DNA of 37,562 bases from Candidatus Heimdallarchaeota archaeon (lineage in GTDB: Archaea > Asgardarchaeota > Heimdallarchaeia > Heimdallarchaeales > Heimdallarchaeaceae): NCBI GenBank assembly GCA_016840095.1, contig JAEOSZ010000019.1, positions 1 to 37,562 on the forward strand, written 5' to 3'. This document shows, one piece after another, positions 4,554 through 32,453 of the stretch. The notes under the pieces are model-generated. The model did not search any database and had not been told where the DNA came from. It saw only the letters and a list, made by a program, of their open reading frames with translations. How positions within the stretch are numbered: the first letter of the stretch is position 1; every line of letters starts with the position of its first letter. Made by a program: the position numbers and the translations under genes.

Positions 4554-5837
4554 TTAGAGAATTTTTTCTCCTTCTTCTAAACTTAACATTGTAAAACCAC
4601 TTATCATCTTAGGATAGAAATCAGTGGCTTTTTGAGGCATTCTTTCATGATTCTTAGAAACTTTTAGAACTTCATCAGCAAGTGTTGGATTGAGGATGAA
4701 AGCAACTTTGTATTTACCATTATCAACTTCTTCAACAGCTTCATTCCACCATCTTTCGTAGAAAATATCATCATCTATATGAAGATCTTTTAATCCCATA
4801 ATTCCATGGAAAATCATATCTCTTAAGATAACTACATCAAGATTTTTGAATTCCTCACTAGCATCGCTTACATATCTGTTAATTGCTGAGATATCCTTCA
4901 TAATCAAAGAAACAGCTCTTCCATCTTGATACATAACAAATGAATGTTTATCCTTATTTTCTTCTAAGAATTTTGGTATTTCAGTTTTCATAATTTCGTT
5001 CATATCAAAGAACATCTTTAGTTCATTCATTTTTCCTTCAGAAACATCTTCTTTAGCTAAACAGCGATGAGTTGCTAAGATATTTAATCCTTCATCTTCA
5101 ACTGGAACAAGATATGTCATTCTGAATTCATATGCAGCATATTCATTTTGATCTGCAGCTTCGTTTCTTCGCATATTTCGATATGTGATAGCTGTTTCGT
5201 ATCTGTGGTGCCCATCTGCTATTACTAATTGTTGGTCTGCAAAGACATCTTGGATAACTTTGATTTTTGCTTGATCAGAAACTTTCCATATCCTGTTATA
5301 CACACCTAAATCGTCTTTAGCTTTAATTAATGGTTCTTCTTTAGCCACTTCATCAAATATCTCTATTGTTTTTTTATCAGGATCAGAGTAAAGTATAAAT
5401 CCAGTTTCTAATGTATGCCTTGTTGTCTTAAGCATATTCAGTCTATCTATTTTTGGACCTTTGTGTGTTTTCTCATGGGGAAGAACAATGTTTTCTTCAA
5501 ATGGATGGAGTCTTAGAGCTCCTATGAAGCCTTTTCTAATGTATTTCTTGCCAAATAATTCATATTCTTGAAAATAAACGTAAATTCCAGGTACCTCATC
5601 TTTTTCTAATATTCCTTCAGCTAACCATTGATCTAACCTTTGTTTTGCGATTTCATACCTGTTTTCTTCAATCGGTAAGGTGAGTCTACAATAGTTATAT
5701 TCTGACTGAGCATAGTATGCGTTTTGCATTTCTTCATCTATTTTGTCATACGGCTGGACTATTAGTTTCTCAATGTCCCCGGCCTTGGCAGTATATCTAA
5801 TTGCTTTGAATGGTTTAATGTCTACCATACTTATCAA
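4554..5837 (-). CDS. DUF1015 family protein
   Basis: IKPFKAIRY, QPYDKI, VLPHEKT, IADGHHRYETA, RMPQKATDFYPKM. Confidence 0.9.
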   Translation of the reverse strand: MISMVDIKPFKAIRYTAKAGDIEKLIVQPYDKIDEEMQNAYYAQSEYNYCRLTLPIEENRYEIAKQRLDQWLAEGILEKDEVPGIYVYFQEYELFGKKYIRKGFIGALRLHPFEENIVLPHEKTHKGPKIDRLNMLKTTRHTLETGFILYSDPDKKTIEIFDEVAKEEPLIKAKDDLGVYNRIWKVSDQAKIKVIQDVFADQQLVIADGHHRYETAITYRNMRRNEAADQNEYAAYEFRMTYLVPVEDEGLNILATHRCLAKEDVSEGKMNELKMFFDMNEIMKTEIPKFLEENKDKHSFVMYQDGRAVSLIMKDISAINRYVSDASEEFKNLDVVILRDMIFHGIMGLKDLHIDDDIFYERWWNEAVEEVDNGKYKVAFILNPTLADEVLKVSKNHERMPQKATDFYPKMISGFTMLSLEEGEKIL

Positions 5838-6025
5838 GCTTGCACATCAGAATCTCTATTTTAATTTTTTTGTTAGAAGATGAAAAGAAACATACTCATT
5901 CTTATGATAATGAACAAAGCATCAAAAAACTTCAAATGATATACCATTTTTCAACGATATACCTTTTTTATGATATATCCTTCGATATTCTTAATAACTC
6001 AACTAAGAGAAGTTATCTCTGAATA

Positions 6026-7495
6026 TTGGTGATAAAAATAGCAGCAATCGACAAATCTGAAAAACCACAACATTGTGGAAAGAAAATGCAGAGACTCTAC
6101 ATCCGGAAAGGAACCAAAAATAGAAAGTGGATACCTGTTGGATATTATTGCAACCTCTGTTCAAAAGTAATAAAAAACAGAGAACTGGTTTTATATCAAA
6201 GTATAGAGGAACTTCGTTCTAGACAAGAATTAGTAGATAATGTTACTAATAAGCAAAAAATTGTACTTGATATTGGTGATAAACTAACCAAAGTAGGATT
6301 TGCTGGTGAAAAAGAACCTAGGTTCATATTTGATACTAGATTATATATTGATCAAAACAACAAGTCATTCATTCAAAAAGCTGATAAAATAGAAACTAGC
6401 AGAAAAGTAAAGCATCAAAAATCCCTACTAGAAGGAAACGGAGAGCAAATTGTTAATTCTGATGATATGGTTCTATTTTTAACACATGTTTTTGAGAAAC
6501 TTGGAACAAAACCTCAAAACAAAAGCATCATGCTAATTGAAAAAAGCTACAAAAACAACTATGTAGAATATTACTATGGAAGGCATGAAGAAATCAAAGA
6601 AACCACTTTACCAGAAGAAATCAAAGAGAGGTTATCAAACAAACCAAAAATCGAAAAAGTCAATTATGATAAATACATAAAATATCCAAGAAGAGAATTA
6701 GCTTCGATCTTCTTTGATTACTTTGATATTGCAAGAATCTACTTCTCAAATGGAGAACTTCTTTCATTGTACTCAAATGCCATGGTTACTGGTTTAGTTG
6801 TAAACATAGGTGTGAGAACAACACGTATTATCCCAGTTTTTCAAGGATTTATTGTTACACAAGCAATTAGCACAAGAGAGTTTGGAACCGAAGATGTTGA
6901 GAAAAGAATTCATGAGCATCTAAACACCCAAAAAAATGTACAAGGAAATTCTGAACATATTAAGTATCTGATAGAAAAACAGTTGCGTTTGGCTTCGGAA
7001 GAATATTGTTACATTTCTCTTGATCCGTCGATTGAACAAGAAAAGTGGTCAGAAAATGCGAAACTGATTAAGCATATCAATTTGTTTAATGATAATTATG
7101 TTAAGCTTGATCAAATAAGGTATTTGGCAACAGAGATACTTTTTGAAAAAGAGGAAATGAGTACTTCAACAAGAAAAGGAAATCTTGTAGATGCAGCAAT
7201 AGAAACAATACAAAAAGCCAATATAGATCTAGAAAAGGATTTGTATGAAAACATTCTCTTAACTGGTGGTGGAACCTTTTATAAAGGATTCAAAGAGAGA
7301 TTTCAAACGGAATTAGAAACAAAAGCACCTGAAAGTCTTGAAGTTAATGTACGACTAAAACCTAATAGATTAATTTCATCTTGGATAGGAGGATCTATTC
7401 TATCAAATTTAAAAACGTTTGAAACTAAAAATCTGTGGGTTACAAAGGATGAATATGAAGAAAGAGGTTCATCTGCAGTAGATAGATGTATTTAG
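6026..7495 (+). CDS. Divergent actin-related protein with an N-terminal Zn-ribbon
   Basis: IVLDIGDKLTKVGFAGEKEPR, LLSLYS..TGLVVNIG, LYENILLTGG, SWIGGSILSNL and WVTKDEYEERG..VDRC align with actin motifs from end to end. Confidence 0.93.
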   Translation: MVIKIAAIDKSEKPQHCGKKMQRLYIRKGTKNRKWIPVGYYCNLCSKVIKNRELVLYQSIEELRSRQELVDNVTNKQKIVLDIGDKLTKVGFAGEKEPRFIFDTRLYIDQNNKSFIQKADKIETSRKVKHQKSLLEGNGEQIVNSDDMVLFLTHVFEKLGTKPQNKSIMLIEKSYKNNYVEYYYGRHEEIKETTLPEEIKERLSNKPKIEKVNYDKYIKYPRRELASIFFDYFDIARIYFSNGELLSLYSNAMVTGLVVNIGVRTTRIIPVFQGFIVTQAISTREFGTEDVEKRIHEHLNTQKNVQGNSEHIKYLIEKQLRLASEEYCYISLDPSIEQEKWSENAKLIKHINLFNDNYVKLDQIRYLATEILFEKEEMSTSTRKGNLVDAAIETIQKANIDLEKDLYENILLTGGGTFYKGFKERFQTELETKAPESLEVNVRLKPNRLISSWIGGSILSNLKTFETKNLWVTKDEYEERGSSAVDRCI

Positions 7496-8547
7496 TCTTT
7501 TATTCCCCATATCTCTTTTGTTTTTTCTTCTAGTTTTACTAGTTCTTCTAAAGAAGGTTTTTTCTTTCCAGCTTCAAATTTATGCACTTCATCTTGAACA
7601 TATTTGTTGAGAAGGGTAGTAACACCAAACTTCTTACCTTGTTCAACTAGATAACCATTCAGAAAGTCAATTTCAGTTCTTTTTCCACTCTCAATAGATT
7701 GAAGACTAGAAGATCTTAGATTCTTGTACTTTTTTCCAATCATCTTTAGAACTATTTGCTTGTAAATATGCTTGAAAGAGAATCCATGAAGTTCTTTCTT
7801 GGTTAAAGCAAGAGAATTTAGATTTAGATTATTTAATCTCTGCAATTGAACACCTTTAGCTTTACCTACTTCTACTCCTTCCGTCATAACTGTTAAAAAA
7901 GCAAGTCTTGTATATTTCCGCTCAAGCATTTTGCCTAGAGTCATACCACTAATTACACCAAATGAAGCAACTGATACATTGATCAATAATTTGGTAAATT
8001 TCTCATTCATAATATTCTCAGAATAAGAAGTTGGAACAGTTTTTGAGAGTAGATTAACAAGTTTATCGTCTATTGGTTTCTTTGGACCTTCTTTTCTACC
8101 TATTACCATTTCTCCAAGAGAGGTTTTTATTGCTTCTGCAGGCCCATTTCTAGATGCACCAAAGCTTACAACACATCCAAGCAATTTTCTTCCATCTATC
8201 TGCTCAGCTAGTTTCTCCTCGAACATACCATTAGTCATTGTAACTAGTGTGTAATCTTTGTTCAATTTAGATTCAATTCTATCATATGCATCTTGAATGT
8301 CAGTTAGTTTTGTAACAATAAATACAAGATCAAGTTCTTCTGGTAGATTTTCTATAGTTAGAACTGGCATAATATTATCTTTAACTATGTATTCTCCACT
8401 TATCCCTGTAACCTTTACACCCCGATTTTCTATCATGTCCAAGGTCTCTTGATGCTTGCACACAACATAAAGAGGAAAATCATTTTTGGCTAAATCTGCA
8501 GCAATTACAGTTCCAATAGCTCCAAGACCAACTAGTGCTGCTTTCAT
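7492..8547 (-). CDS. panE: 2-dehydropantoate 2-reductase (ketopantoate reductase family)
   Basis: GLGAIG Rossmann motif, KLLIN catalytic Lys, SSSLQS..GKRTEIDFLNG. Confidence 0.85.
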   Translation of the reverse strand: MKAALVGLGAIGTVIAADLAKNDFPLYVVCKHQETLDMIENRGVKVTGISGEYIVKDNIMPVLTIENLPEELDLVFIVTKLTDIQDAYDRIESKLNKDYTLVTMTNGMFEEKLAEQIDGRKLLGCVVSFGASRNGPAEAIKTSLGEMVIGRKEGPKKPIDDKLVNLLSKTVPTSYSENIMNEKFTKLLINVSVASFGVISGMTLGKMLERKYTRLAFLTVMTEGVEVGKAKGVQLQRLNNLNLNSLALTKKELHGFSFKHIYKQIVLKMIGKKYKNLRSSSLQSIESGKRTEIDFLNGYLVEQGKKFGVTTLLNKYVQDEVHKFEAGKKKPSLEELVKLEEKTKEIWGIKD

Positions 8548-20051: not shown

Positions 20052-20927
20052 ATGACTAAAAATTTTGGAATCATTACTGATTCTGGTGCTGATTTCAGTT
20101 TAGATTATATGAAAGAAAATGATGTAGTTCTTATACCAACTAGAATTATGATTGGTGAAGCAGAATATATCGATCGCAATAATATTACTAGAGATGAAAT
20201 CATTGATTTGATGCTCAATGAAAAGGTTAAAACATCTACTTCAGTAGCTACTCCTGCTGATTTTCATCAAATAATTTCAGATACTCTTGAAAAACATAAT
20301 CAGGTTCTCTTTATAGGTATTAGTACTAAAATGTCTGCAACCATACAAAATGCACTTTTAACCGCTAAAAGATTGAAAACTGAGAATTTTACTGCTTTTG
20401 ATACAGAGACTGTATCTTGGGGTATGACATTTCTCCTTGATCATGCAGTAAGAAGAAGAGACCAAGGGATCTCATTAGATAGGGTTATTGAAGAACTAAA
20501 TCAAATGAAATCTAATCTTAAACTTTTCTTCATGGTAGATACTCTTGAGTATCTAAGAAGAGGAGGTAGGATAGGTGCAGCAAAAAGTCTTCTTGGAACA
20601 CTTATAGGAGCTAAACCTCTACTTACTGTTGAAGATGGAGAAATATCAGCTGCAGAAACAGTCAAAAGTTTTGAAACAGGAATGGAATTCTTTGAAAGAA
20701 TACTAGATGAAAAAACTAAGGAATACGAAAACTATGTTATAGCAATTATCTATGGAATTGAAACTCCAGAATTTATAGATTTTTCACAAAAAGTTAAAAC
20801 AAAATATGCTCCTCTAGTTTTTCACTATGCACCAATCGGTGCTAATATCATCAGTCATGCTGGACCAAAGTTATTCGGTTTTGGTATTATTAAAATTCCA
20901 GATGAAGCAATAGAAGCTTACAAATAA
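20052..20927 (+). CDS. DegV/FakB-family fatty-acid-binding protein (copy 1)
   Basis: IITDSGAD, STS, ISTKMSAT, LEYLRRGGRIG, KPLL, SHAGP; GGAGG site. Confidence 0.92.
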   Translation: MTKNFGIITDSGADFSLDYMKENDVVLIPTRIMIGEAEYIDRNNITRDEIIDLMLNEKVKTSTSVATPADFHQIISDTLEKHNQVLFIGISTKMSATIQNALLTAKRLKTENFTAFDTETVSWGMTFLLDHAVRRRDQGISLDRVIEELNQMKSNLKLFFMVDTLEYLRRGGRIGAAKSLLGTLIGAKPLLTVEDGEISAAETVKSFETGMEFFERILDEKTKEYENYVIAIIYGIETPEFIDFSQKVKTKYAPLVFHYAPIGANIISHAGPKLFGFGIIKIPDEAIEAYK

Positions 20928-29991: not shown

Positions 29992-31086
29992 TTACTTCTT
30001 TTTCTTCATAAATCGTGGATCGATTTCTTCTCTTTGAGAAGCATCTTGATAGTTTTCTTTAGCTTGTTCTTTTGCTTCTTCAAGAGTTTCGTCAGAATGA
30101 CATATCCATCTCAAGTGAGTAGAAGCTGGTTTTCCGCACCATGGACAGAATAGATCATCTAAATATTCTATAATTCTGTTATGAGCAGATAAATTCCTTC
30201 TATGTTTTCCTCTCTCCTCGATAATTGGTTTTGTAAGTATCTCTGCTGCTTTCTTCTTTCCAACTGAAACCGCTTTTTTCACTGTTTCTATTTCGTCTTT
30301 TGGAATTTCTATGCTATATCCTTCTTTTGAGTCACCTATAACTTCTACAGGAATCCCTTCTGTTAAAATTGCTTCTTGCTCATCTCTAGGTACTTTCTTA
30401 ATTTGGGATACGAATTTACTAGCCTCATCTTTACCCATATCTTGTTCAACGATTTTCTCATAGGTACTTTTCTGTAAACTAGGATCACTAATTGTTGATA
30501 ATCTTGAAAGAATCCTTTCTGGTATTCTCTCATCCGCAGGTTTACCTAACTCTTCAGAAATAATATCTGGAGCAACGCTAGCAGCTTCTAACCATAATCG
30601 TAAAGTGTTAGATTTAATATGAATCTTTGCACAAATCTCATCAATTTTTTCTTCAGTTGGTATTAATGAAAGGTTTCTAGATTTTTTCCTTTCAATACTG
30701 TTAATAATATTTGCAAGACTTTTAGGAGTTTGAACAATACCTTCACTTCTAAAGACCTCCATAACTCCTCTACCTTTCTCAATCATGTAAAGGTCTTTTC
30801 GATGAATATTTTCTATTAAAGATTCTATTCTTTGTTGACTCTCATCAATCTCTTTTACAATTGCATATATCTTGTTCAATCCTGCAAATTGTGCAGCTCT
30901 CCATCTTCTTTCTCCAGCAATTATCTGATAAGATTCATCTCCAGTTTGTCTGACTAAAATAGGATTTAGCAGATCATATGCTTTAATTGAATTAGCCAGT
31001 TCTTCAATAGCATCTTTATCGAAGGTTTCTCTTGGCTGAAAAGGGCTTGGACTTATTTTTTCTACAGGAATTTGCACGATTTCCAT
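29992..31086 (-). CDS. parB: ParB/Spo0J-family protein with a C-terminal Cys/His motif
   Basis: PSPFQPRETFD, LANSIK, PILVR, IIAGERRWRAA, ENIHRKDL. Confidence 0.85.
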   Translation of the reverse strand: MEIVQIPVEKISPSPFQPRETFDKDAIEELANSIKAYDLLNPILVRQTGDESYQIIAGERRWRAAQFAGLNKIYAIVKEIDESQQRIESLIENIHRKDLYMIEKGRGVMEVFRSEGIVQTPKSLANIINSIERKKSRNLSLIPTEEKIDEICAKIHIKSNTLRLWLEAASVAPDIISEELGKPADERIPERILSRLSTISDPSLQKSTYEKIVEQDMGKDEASKFVSQIKKVPRDEQEAILTEGIPVEVIGDSKEGYSIEIPKDEIETVKKAVSVGKKKAAEILTKPIIEERGKHRRNLSAHNRIIEYLDDLFCPWCGKPASTHLRWICHSDETLEEAKEQAKENYQDASQREEIDPRFMKKKK

Positions 31087-31580: not shown

Positions 31581-32453
31581 GTGACTAACTCGTATTCGAT
31601 TGTGATAGATTCACCATCAGATTTCCCTAAGAAATTAGAAGAACAACATGATATATTCATTGTTCCAGCTAGAGTACTTATAGGTAGAACAAACTATGCA
31701 GACGGAGTAGGAATTACCCGTGAAAAAATTTTGCATGATCTTGTTAATTCAAAAGAAGATATCAGATCTCAGGAAGCTCCTCCTGGTAATTTTCTCGAAG
31801 TTTTCGAAAAAGCAATGGAAGTTTCAGATCATATTCTATATATTTCTATTAGTCATAAACTAAGTAAGTCTTATCATAGTGCAACAATTGCTGCTAGAAA
31901 ATTTAGAGGAAGAATTACGCTTATTGATACTCTTTCTATTTCTCATGGAGTCACTATGATGGCTCATCATGCACTGCTAAGAAGAGAACAAGGTATGGAA
32001 CTAGCTCCTCTGGTTGGAGAGATTACTGAAATGATGAACAATACACGAGTTTATGTCTTAGTTGAAGAACTAAAATACCTCTATAAAGGAGGTAGAATTG
32101 GAAGAGCTCAACAAACTATTGGATCATTGTTAAACATGAAACCTATGCTTCATCTAGTGGATGGAGAATTAGATGCTTTAATGAGTATTAGAGGAGCAAA
32201 AGCTGGCTACAAATTCATGGAAGAAAAGGTTATAGAGCATGCAGGGGAGTTCGGAGATTTTGCTTTATCAGGATCTTATGGATCAGATAATAAAAAGTTT
32301 GAAGAACTATCAAATTCTCTCAATGAGAGATTGAACCCTTTAAGCTACCTCTACGAATCTATAGGTCCAGCTGTTTCTTGCAATGTTGGACCAAAAGTAG
32401 AAGCATTCTTCATTACAAAATTACCTAAAAATTCAGCTGATTTATACAAATAA
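31581..32453 (+). CDS. DegV/FakB-family fatty-acid-binding protein (copy 2)
   Basis: IVIDSPSD, ISHKLSKS, LKYLYKGGRIG, KPML, VGP. Confidence 0.9.
   Translation: MTNSYSIVIDSPSDFPKKLEEQHDIFIVPARVLIGRTNYADGVGITREKILHDLVNSKEDIRSQEAPPGNFLEVFEKAMEVSDHILYISISHKLSKSYHSATIAARKFRGRITLIDTLSISHGVTMMAHHALLRREQGMELAPLVGEITEMMNNTRVYVLVEELKYLYKGGRIGRAQQTIGSLLNMKPMLHLVDGELDALMSIRGAKAGYKFMEEKVIEHAGEFGDFALSGSYGSDNKKFEELSNSLNERLNPLSYLYESIGPAVSCNVGPKVEAFFITKLPKNSADLYK

Follow-up and report, generated by a model that had tools for sequence, protein, structure and literature searches.

What becomes of the actin fold in an archaeon that already has an actin? The question is raised by a gene on contig JAEOSZ010000019.1 of Candidatus Heimdallarchaeota archaeon (GenBank assembly GCA_016840095.1), whose 37,562 nucleotides are the window analyzed here. 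The gene occupies positions 6026 to 7495 of the forward strand and encodes an actin-related protein (ARP), in a genome that also carries one canonical actin (378 amino acids, 447 bits to the Pfam Actin model). We give a probability of about 0.5 to the following reading, drawn from sequence comparison: the product is a lineage-specific adaptor that neither hydrolyzes ATP nor polymerizes as F-actin, and that is linked to DNA and regulates itself through an N-terminal head acting on palindromic boxes upstream of the gene. An initial annotation had started the gene at 6254. The open reading frame it described is real, but 76 N-terminal residues of that frame were cut off. It also omitted the head and the box array, two features that probably decide function.

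Fold, nucleotide site and contact surfaces

The gene and the features of its actin part are as follows; residues of the ARP are numbered from the TTG start, and pLDDT is the predicted local distance difference test score.

6026..7495, +: whole ARP gene, stop included; 489 amino acids from TTG at 6026, or 488 from GTG at 6029
6251..7492, +: actin fold, residues 76-489 (PF00022, 1.8e-60; model superposition)
6269..6283, +: phosphate-1 loop D82-I-G-D-K86 (actin DNGSG); D11 and G13 kept, S14 and G15 lost and variable in the family
6368..6376, +: F115-I116-Q117, in the D-loop region of a shortened subdomain 2; at least 90% conserved and modeled as ordered (pLDDT 95)
6542..6688, +: insert region, residues 173-221; 41 extra residues in place of the actin Pro-rich loop (108-115), mostly helical
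6752..6754, +: G243 at the place of catalytic Q137, by alignment to actin
6758..6787, +: barbed-face cleft helix (actin 139-148, LLSLYSNAMV); kept, with 50% identity and 73% similarity to the own-genome actin
6803..6826, +: phosphate-2 loop N260-I-G-V-R-T-T-R267 (actin DSGDGVTH); D154, D157 and G158 lost, H161 replaced by an invariant Arg
7385..7492, +: barbed-face cleft and C-terminus (actin 341-375, IGGSILSNLKTF...EYEERGSSAVDRCI); the most actin-like part, with 66% and 48% identity

The actin part scored 205.1 bits against Pfam Actin (PF00022; cut-off, 27; E 1.8e-60) in two stretches split by the insert. Its top sequence match in the PDB was 9wc4, "HC1 actin" (7.5e-44, 153 bits), followed by Arp1 and actins at about 1e-41, with Arp1 chains scoring as actin does (145 versus 145 bits). 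An AlphaFold2 model built from 65 aligned sequences (mean pLDDT, 88.3; predicted template modeling score, 0.81) has the four subdomains of actin. Residues 77-489 of the model superposed on actin 6-375 (1t44_A) with a Z score of 40.9 and a root mean square deviation of 2.4 Å over 347 aligned residues, and actins filled all top rows of a Foldseek search (template modeling [TM] scores of 0.80 to 0.87). Identity to actin is 29 to 31%. About 35 full-length orthologues (36 to 63% identity) point to a gene under selection: the frame is intact in 15 genomes, 5 more have pieces cut at contig ends, and 39 columns of the family alignment are invariant.

To compare the nucleotide site, we aligned the protein to a 379-residue rotifer actin, with the DNGSG motif fixing the standard 375-residue numbering, and tabulated 33 orthologues against 32 actins. 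D11, N12, G13, S14 and G15 of actin correspond to D82, I83, G84, D85 and K86; D154, S155, G156, D157 and G158 correspond to N260, I261, G262, V263 and R264; Q137 corresponds to G243 and H161 to R267. Every substitution that the initial annotation had listed in the two phosphate loops and at Q137 and H161 was thus reproduced by alignment to canonical actin. All seven residues of the conventional hydrolysis set (S14, G15, Q137, D154, D157, G158 and H161) are replaced in the query and in the family. Among the 33 orthologues, the S14 position takes at least six states (E, S, Y, F, A and D), the G15 position is S, K, C, N or Y, and the Q137 position is G in 20, K in 10, E in 2 and Q in 1. D154 gives way to N, G, S or H, D157 to A or S, and G158 to S, N, K, L, R or F, while the H161 position is R in 33 of 33. 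Further losses, unlisted before, are K213 (to S or T), T303 (to G) and K336 (to L); H73 and G74 of the sensor loop, R177 and R183 are also gone from the family. Because the same sites are lost across all 33 orthologues, the catalytic-site changes are a family trait rather than noise in a single sequence. A clamp on the beta- and gamma-phosphates would hardly accept a Tyr, Phe or Glu in place of S14, and we therefore read the phosphate site as abandoned. The alignments support the view that the ATPase machinery has been dismantled throughout the family. The actin residues kept in the family are D11, G13, K18, G156, E214, G301, G302 and Y306. A network of salt bridges among R267, D82, K89 and E325 is a candidate filling for the nucleotide cleft.

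We then asked which surfaces of actin persist. Contact segments were taken from the F-actin literature and fixed before computation, and the identity of 33 family members to the own-genome actin was compared with that of random blocks (mean identity, 31.3%). The barbed-face segments (139-148, 166-171, 285-294, 322-328, 341-355 and 366-375 in actin numbering; 58 positions) reached 51.7% identity (P = 0.006). The pointed-face segments (38-52, 60-65, 199-206 and 241-248; 37 positions) fell to 5.8% (P = 0.001), and the lateral segments (108-116, 191-198 and 262-274; 30 positions) fell to 12.5% (P = 0.03). After regression on column conservation among actins, the residuals were +0.17 for the barbed, −0.19 for the pointed and −0.17 for the lateral segments. 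At the level of sequence, the comparison shows that the barbed face (hydrophobic cleft, W-loop, base of subdomain 3 and C-terminus) is selectively kept, while the pointed and lateral contacts have been erased or rebuilt; by these literature-based residue sets, the ARP lacks the pointed and lateral F-actin contacts of a conventional actin. The asymmetry fits a protein able to meet the pointed face of actin, or a cleft-binding protein, and does not fit extension of the F-actin lattice or lateral bonding. The alignment also bears out the earlier statement that the C-terminal subdomain-1 motifs are well kept. The ARP ends in ...AVDRCI, close to the ...AVYRCI of Heimdallarchaeaceae actins.

The Pro-rich loop of actin is a lateral F-actin contact and adjoins the nucleotide sensor. 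In the ARP, residues 173-221 stand against actin 108-115, so that the insertion of about 41 residues reported earlier comes to exactly 41 extra residues. It is conserved (consensus, NYxDxLKGRxDVINNSTLPE), with G185, L195 and L203 invariant and I190, P196 and K200 conserved in at least 90%, and it is modeled with confidence (pLDDT 94 to 97) as short helices at 180-183, 187-191 and 197-205. Subdomain 2 (actin 32-82) is indeed shortened, as had been claimed for the D-loop region, but not by about 9 residues: the alignment gives 5 relative to eukaryotic actin and 7 relative to the own-genome actin.

The N-terminal head and the upstream boxes

The head and the promoter region contain the following features.

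5936..5982, +: triple palindromic box array (ATGATATAYCAT, 12 bp); three direct copies, start-to-start 18 and 16 bp
5936..5947, +: box 1, ATGATATACCAT, 12-bp palindrome
5954..5965, +: box 2, ACGATATACCTT, 12-bp palindrome
5970..5981, +: box 3, ATGATATATCCT, 12-bp palindrome
5982..5992, +: degenerate box 4, TCGATATTCTT, from repeat comparison
5991..5997, +: TATA-like element TTAATAA, 28 nt 5' of the start codon and directly behind box 3/4; putative archaeal promoter core, read from the sequence
6026..6250, +: N-terminal head, residues 1-75; basic, aromatic beta-hairpin module followed by a long helix (51-72)
6071..6076, 6149..6151 and 6158..6160, +: candidate metal ligands H16 and C17, C42, and C45, predicted from conservation

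The head (HC...CxxC) is the most conserved segment of the family. M21, Y25, I26, R27, G29, T30, R33, W35, G39, C42 and C45 are invariant, and H16, C17 and K19 are conserved in at least 90%. Orthologue start codons lie 9 to 13 codons 5' of the KPxHCGK motif; the public gene call P0002 (100% identity) uses the GTG start and has 488 amino acids. The model gives two beta hairpins and a third strand, followed by the helix at 51-72 (core pLDDT, 83 to 93), with basic and aromatic residues abundant on the beta sheet. Across 47 genomes of the order, two of them closed, a profile of the head matched only in 17 of 24 genomes of the own genus, 2 of 2 of a sister genus and 1 of 1 of a second family, with a single copy in each, always fused to the ARP; neither this search nor a word-based search of shorter proteins found free-standing relatives.

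No known family claimed the head. Pfam returned only subthreshold zinc-finger matches, an Atlas feature search gave no usable match, and the fold searches gave nothing significant (Foldseek best E, 0.19, to the MqsA zinc domain; VIA best Z, 4.0). Among the weak top rows, zinc ribbons of three types (MqsA N-domain, recombinase and GRF) kept recurring, including Atlas rows for MqsA and recombinase zinc ribbons (TM score, 0.36 to 0.40), and the VIA rows included the nucleic-acid binders GRF, Pur-alpha and PC4 at noise level (Z of at most 4.0). Compared with a zinc ribbon, the second knuckle, C42-x2-C45, is invariant and the model has two hairpins, but the first knuckle is an adjacent H16-C17 pair rather than CxxC. 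From the model, the head looks zinc-ribbon-like and belongs to no known family.

Upstream of the gene, the box array recurs with identical spacing in 15 of the 15 orthologue loci examined (consensus, wATGATATAYCAT from 47 boxes), with TTTAATAA or TTTATTAA at the equivalent place behind box 3. The spaced box pair occurs at a single site in the 3.44-Mb genome, at the ARP gene (reversed control, 0), while single boxes occur at chance level. In G022, G032, G037 and G011, the array lies solely directly upstream of the orthologue; in G010, the exact array pattern was not found, and none of five related genomes without the ARP gene contained the array. At the distant orthologue loci L018, L019 and L040 (sister genus; P0035), an extra box lies over the start codon (GAATGATATACCATGAA...), besides the upstream array.

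The ARP gene is monocistronic. It stands between a divergent DUF1015 gene (4554-5837, −) and a convergent panE/ApbA gene (7492-8547, −), and the order DUF1015, ARP, panE, serA-like gene, aminotransferase gene is the same at every occurrence of the ARP gene. These neighbors are metabolic, and none shares a transcription unit with the ARP. We found no regulator or transcription factor gene next to the ARP gene at its own locus or on the orthologue contigs, and neither a cytoskeletal partner gene nor an Orc/Cdc6 gene in the window. Since the array is unique per genome (five searched) and strictly co-occurs with the gene, and since no regulator gene is nearby, we infer that the head binds the boxes; this is the most economical reading of the co-occurrence.

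Elsewhere in the window (G+C, 31 to 35%), a protein with a ParB N-terminal domain (PF02195, 7e-33) is encoded at 29992-31086 (−), 24 kb from the ARP gene and without a detected link to it; no ParA was seen among the window reading frames scanned. Two DegV-family paralogues lie at 20052-20927 (+; 3e-65) and 31581-32453 (+; 6e-59). The source assembly comprises 3.44 Mb in 165 contigs and is 89% complete. The first 41 codons of the canonical actin occur twice at contig ends, on C118 (1-123, −) and C119 (5-1150, +) of G000, identical in sequence and with differing upstream DNA, which indicates that either the assembly broke within the gene or the genome has a further copy of actin. Two canonical actins do occur in some genomes of the genus, e.g., G022.

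Distribution and origin of the family

We searched 400 Asgard genomes with the family profile. Full-length matches (515 to 803 bits) were confined to one Heimdallarchaeial order and, within it, to three genera: the own genus (17 of 24 genomes), the sister genus (both genomes) and a genus of a second family (its single genome). The 7 own-genus genomes in which the ARP was not detected are 72 to 92% complete. In the other Asgard genomes, the best match was ordinary actin, at 230 to 245 bits and over the C-terminal half. Among 1.84 billion representative proteins, the profile found two full-length representatives and fragments before scores dropped to the level of plain actin, and the best matches outside the family were actins of Anaeramoeba, Galdieria and Hodarchaeota. 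The source names of the orthologues place the host in Heimdallarchaeia, family Heimdallarchaeaceae.

Maximum-likelihood trees were built under LG+C20 with posterior mean site frequencies. They recovered the ARP family as monophyletic (100/100) on a stem of 1.2 to 1.3 changes per site, and two of them placed it outside the clade of lokiactin and eukaryotic actin (96/95 and 88/78). In a tree with ten arpA sequences, the family paired with the actin clade (89/75) rather than with arpA. Of the phylogeny suggested earlier, with lokiactin, Asgard ARPs and ARP1-10, the trees covered lokiactin and Asgard ARPs, besides eukaryotic actins, but no genuine eukaryotic ARP. A constrained clade with the actins of Heimdallarchaeaceae was not rejected by the approximately unbiased (AU) test (log likelihood lower by 14.9; p-AU, 0.17). 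The row P0065 bears the name "actin-related protein ARP1 [Cardiosporidium cionae]", which is doubtful: in every tree it is sister to Plasmodium actin, like any plain apicomplexan actin.

One closed genome within the family Heimdallarchaeaceae lacks this ARP and has a different paralogue. L048 (G015:C1:1195607-1196704) is a long-branch actin paralogue of 387 amino acids (281 bits to Pfam Actin) with an eroded site (Q137S, D154E, G156S, H161I and E214K), and it nests within the actins of Heimdallarchaeaceae (92/99). It seems to be a second ARP-like derivative of independent origin; given its placement inside those actins, the tree method can recover a recent duplicate. In the same genome, L054 (G015:C1:970493-970822), probably a pseudogene, resembles part of actin (profile positions 270-394, 88 bits) and is interrupted by two TAA stops.

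Asgard archaea are already known to have ARPs, which were published as unnamed tree groups, none of them characterized, and "Ca. Lokiarchaeum ossiferum" has three actin homologues other than lokiactin (PMC9834061). We labeled the Lokiarchaeial groups extracted from G134 and G137 arpA, arpB and arpC. Their catalytic residues are eroded as well, and in arpA, too, Q137 has become Gly, H161 Arg and D157/G158 Ala/Ser. Unlike the present family, these groups have neither the head nor the 41-residue insert; they measure 373 to 385 amino acids, and their identity to the ARP (22 to 26%) is below that of actin. arpA (L049/L050 and L065-L089, from Lokiarchaeial and f20 genomes) was found in two Asgard families only, neither of them that of the ARP. 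A sister relationship to Lokiarchaeial arpA was favored with two arpA rows and by the shared G137 and R161, and was lost once ten rows broke the branch; the signal was probably long-branch attraction, and the states common to both appear convergent. Residues exclusive to the family and the Heimdallarchaeial actins were likewise considered as a sign of recent duplication; they amounted to 1 or 2 columns, no more than in control groups. The family may be an old ARP lineage with many losses or a fast-evolving duplicate, and it is lineage specific today either way. The earlier suggestion of ARP-style specialization before eukaryotes is not supported by this gene: the family is confined to three genera, with none elsewhere in the 400 Asgard genomes, and a recent origin from Heimdallarchaeial actin was not rejected (AU p, 0.17).

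Proposed function and its alternatives

If the proposal of a DNA-linked adaptor is correct, the barbed face of the ARP would dock on the pointed face of the host's own actin or on a protein that grips the cleft of actin. The docked ARP could not be extended further and would act as a cap, anchor or adaptor. The basic, zinc-ribbon-like head would be a second working end: by binding the box array at the gene's own TATA-like element, it would let the ARP limit its own synthesis, and through it the ARP would be linked to DNA at least transiently. The initial annotation had pictured a monomeric, non-polymerizing pseudo-ATPase serving as scaffold, capper or sequestering partner. At the level of sequence, the dismantled ATPase sites and the asymmetry of the faces agree with an ARP that neither hydrolyzes nor polymerizes and serves as capper, adaptor or scaffold.

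Several points weigh against this proposal. The kept D11, G13, K18, G156, E214, G301, G302 and Y306 may leave room for binding of adenosine or a nucleotide without hydrolysis. The barbed-face segments rank among the better-conserved parts of actin generally, and the contact-residue sets come from the F-actin literature rather than from a tool. The FIQ residues and the plug region are conserved in the family, possibly as a new self-contact. The head offers only three Cys and a single His, H16 sits right next to C17, and no zinc ribbon matches it significantly. Its link to the boxes is one of co-occurrence, and another factor could bind them; the boxes also lie in an intergenic region common to the ARP and DUF1015 genes.

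Relative to lokiactin (9wc4, "HC1 actin") and eukaryotic actin, the ARP is alike in fold, barbed-face segments and C-terminus, and differs in its lost catalytic residues, shortened subdomain 2, 41-residue insert and 75-residue head. Some non-polymerizing eukaryotic ARPs have weak or no ATPase activity. To our knowledge, neither an insert at the Pro-rich loop nor a fused zinc-ribbon-like head is known from any eukaryotic ARP. Arp4/Arp8, Arp7/Arp9 and Arp11 at the pointed end of dynactin resemble the family in that their actin fold serves as a barbed-face adaptor, and by this analogy nuclear ARPs may be its closest functional counterparts; the family differs in being confined to three archaeal genera. 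Eukaryotic ARPs that do not polymerize are reported to be kept monomeric by insertions and altered pointed-end elements (PMC6167448; PMC3510490).

Among the alternatives, the one that survives best, unlikely as we hold it, is a scaffold of the nuclear-ARP type without a direct tie to filaments, whose cleft holds a partner helix, whose head sits on DNA or RNA, and whose role lies in chromatin or transcription. Its model is Arp4, Arp8 and Arp7/9, which hold HSA helices. The basic head, the nucleic-acid binders among its weak fold rows (GRF, Pur-alpha and PC4) and the presence of a DNA box array favor it, as does the likeness to nuclear ARPs, which are monomeric, rich in lineage-specific insertions and engaged in complexes as adaptors through the barbed face (PMC6167448). 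Yet those fold rows are at noise level (Z of 4.0 or less), no partner gene is linked, and one DNA site per genome suits autoregulation better than a general chromatin role.

Rather improbable, and second among the alternatives, is an ARP with a cytoskeletal role alone, which would cap pointed ends of lokiactin filaments or seed their nucleation; its head would sit on a protein or membrane, and the boxes would serve a dedicated transcription factor unrelated to it. In favor is the pattern of a kept barbed face with lost pointed and lateral faces, through which Arp2/3 and Arp11 engage actin-type subunits. The genome offers gelsolin-domain genes and one or two canonical actins as company for such a protein, and the head matches no DNA-binding family. 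What this explanation accommodates poorly is a box array that is unique per genome and strictly linked to the gene, with no regulator gene nearby, and a head that is basic, aromatic and the most conserved part of the protein.

We have little confidence in a third possibility, a nucleotide-binding protein that assembles into its own non-canonical filament and might, as a ParM/ParR/parC system with a built-in adaptor, even move the box locus. Crenactin and ParM do polymerize through other contact residues, and in ParM/ParR/parC a repeat array is both binding site and promoter control. The short-repeat array upstream of an actin-fold gene recalls the parC of such type II partition systems, D11, K18, G156, E214 and G301-G302 are kept, and the conserved FIQ residues and plug region would suit self-assembly. 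The phosphate clamps, however, differ from one orthologue to the next, often with a bulky or acidic residue, Q137, D154 and H161 are gone, and the 41-residue insert sits on the lateral contact. No separate adaptor gene is present, the gene downstream being the convergent panE/ApbA homologue, and the locus further differs from ParM/ParR/parC in being chromosomal and syntenic, with three or four boxes. Finally, a decaying, functionless duplicate is scarcely credible: the long stem (1.2 to 1.3 changes per site) and the failure to find the ARP in 7 of the 24 own-genus genomes (72 to 92% complete) would suit decay, but frames are intact in 15 genomes, 39 columns are invariant, and insert, head and promoter array are all conserved.

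The proposed DNA-linked adaptor admits a further step, which we regard as a long shot: the head might clamp the box array while the barbed face docks on the pointed end of lokiactin, so that one protein would tie a unique chromosomal site to the actin cytoskeleton. If true, archaea would have evolved, on their own, an equivalent of kinetochore-like or ParR/parC tethers or of nuclear ARPs bound to DNA. Such a link could position the locus or make transcription of the ARP gene depend on the state of the actin pool.

Among the papers of the library searched, none described this ARP family, its head or its boxes. New here are the asymmetry of the faces, the head fused only to this ARP, the private box array, the restriction to three genera and the maximum-likelihood placement near the base of the actin clade. 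ARPs are commonly seen as something that eukaryotes elaborated from actin. The restriction of this one to three genera cautions against placing all Asgard ARPs in the ancestry of the eukaryotic ones. An Asgard lineage appears to have independently made the actin fold a pseudo-ATPase adaptor by the route of eukaryotic ARPs, with the barbed face kept, the pointed and lateral faces destroyed and inserts added. On top of this, the family has acquired a head that probably binds DNA, together with an operator of its own, and it may offer a compact, testable example of a link between an actin-fold protein and DNA in a non-eukaryote.

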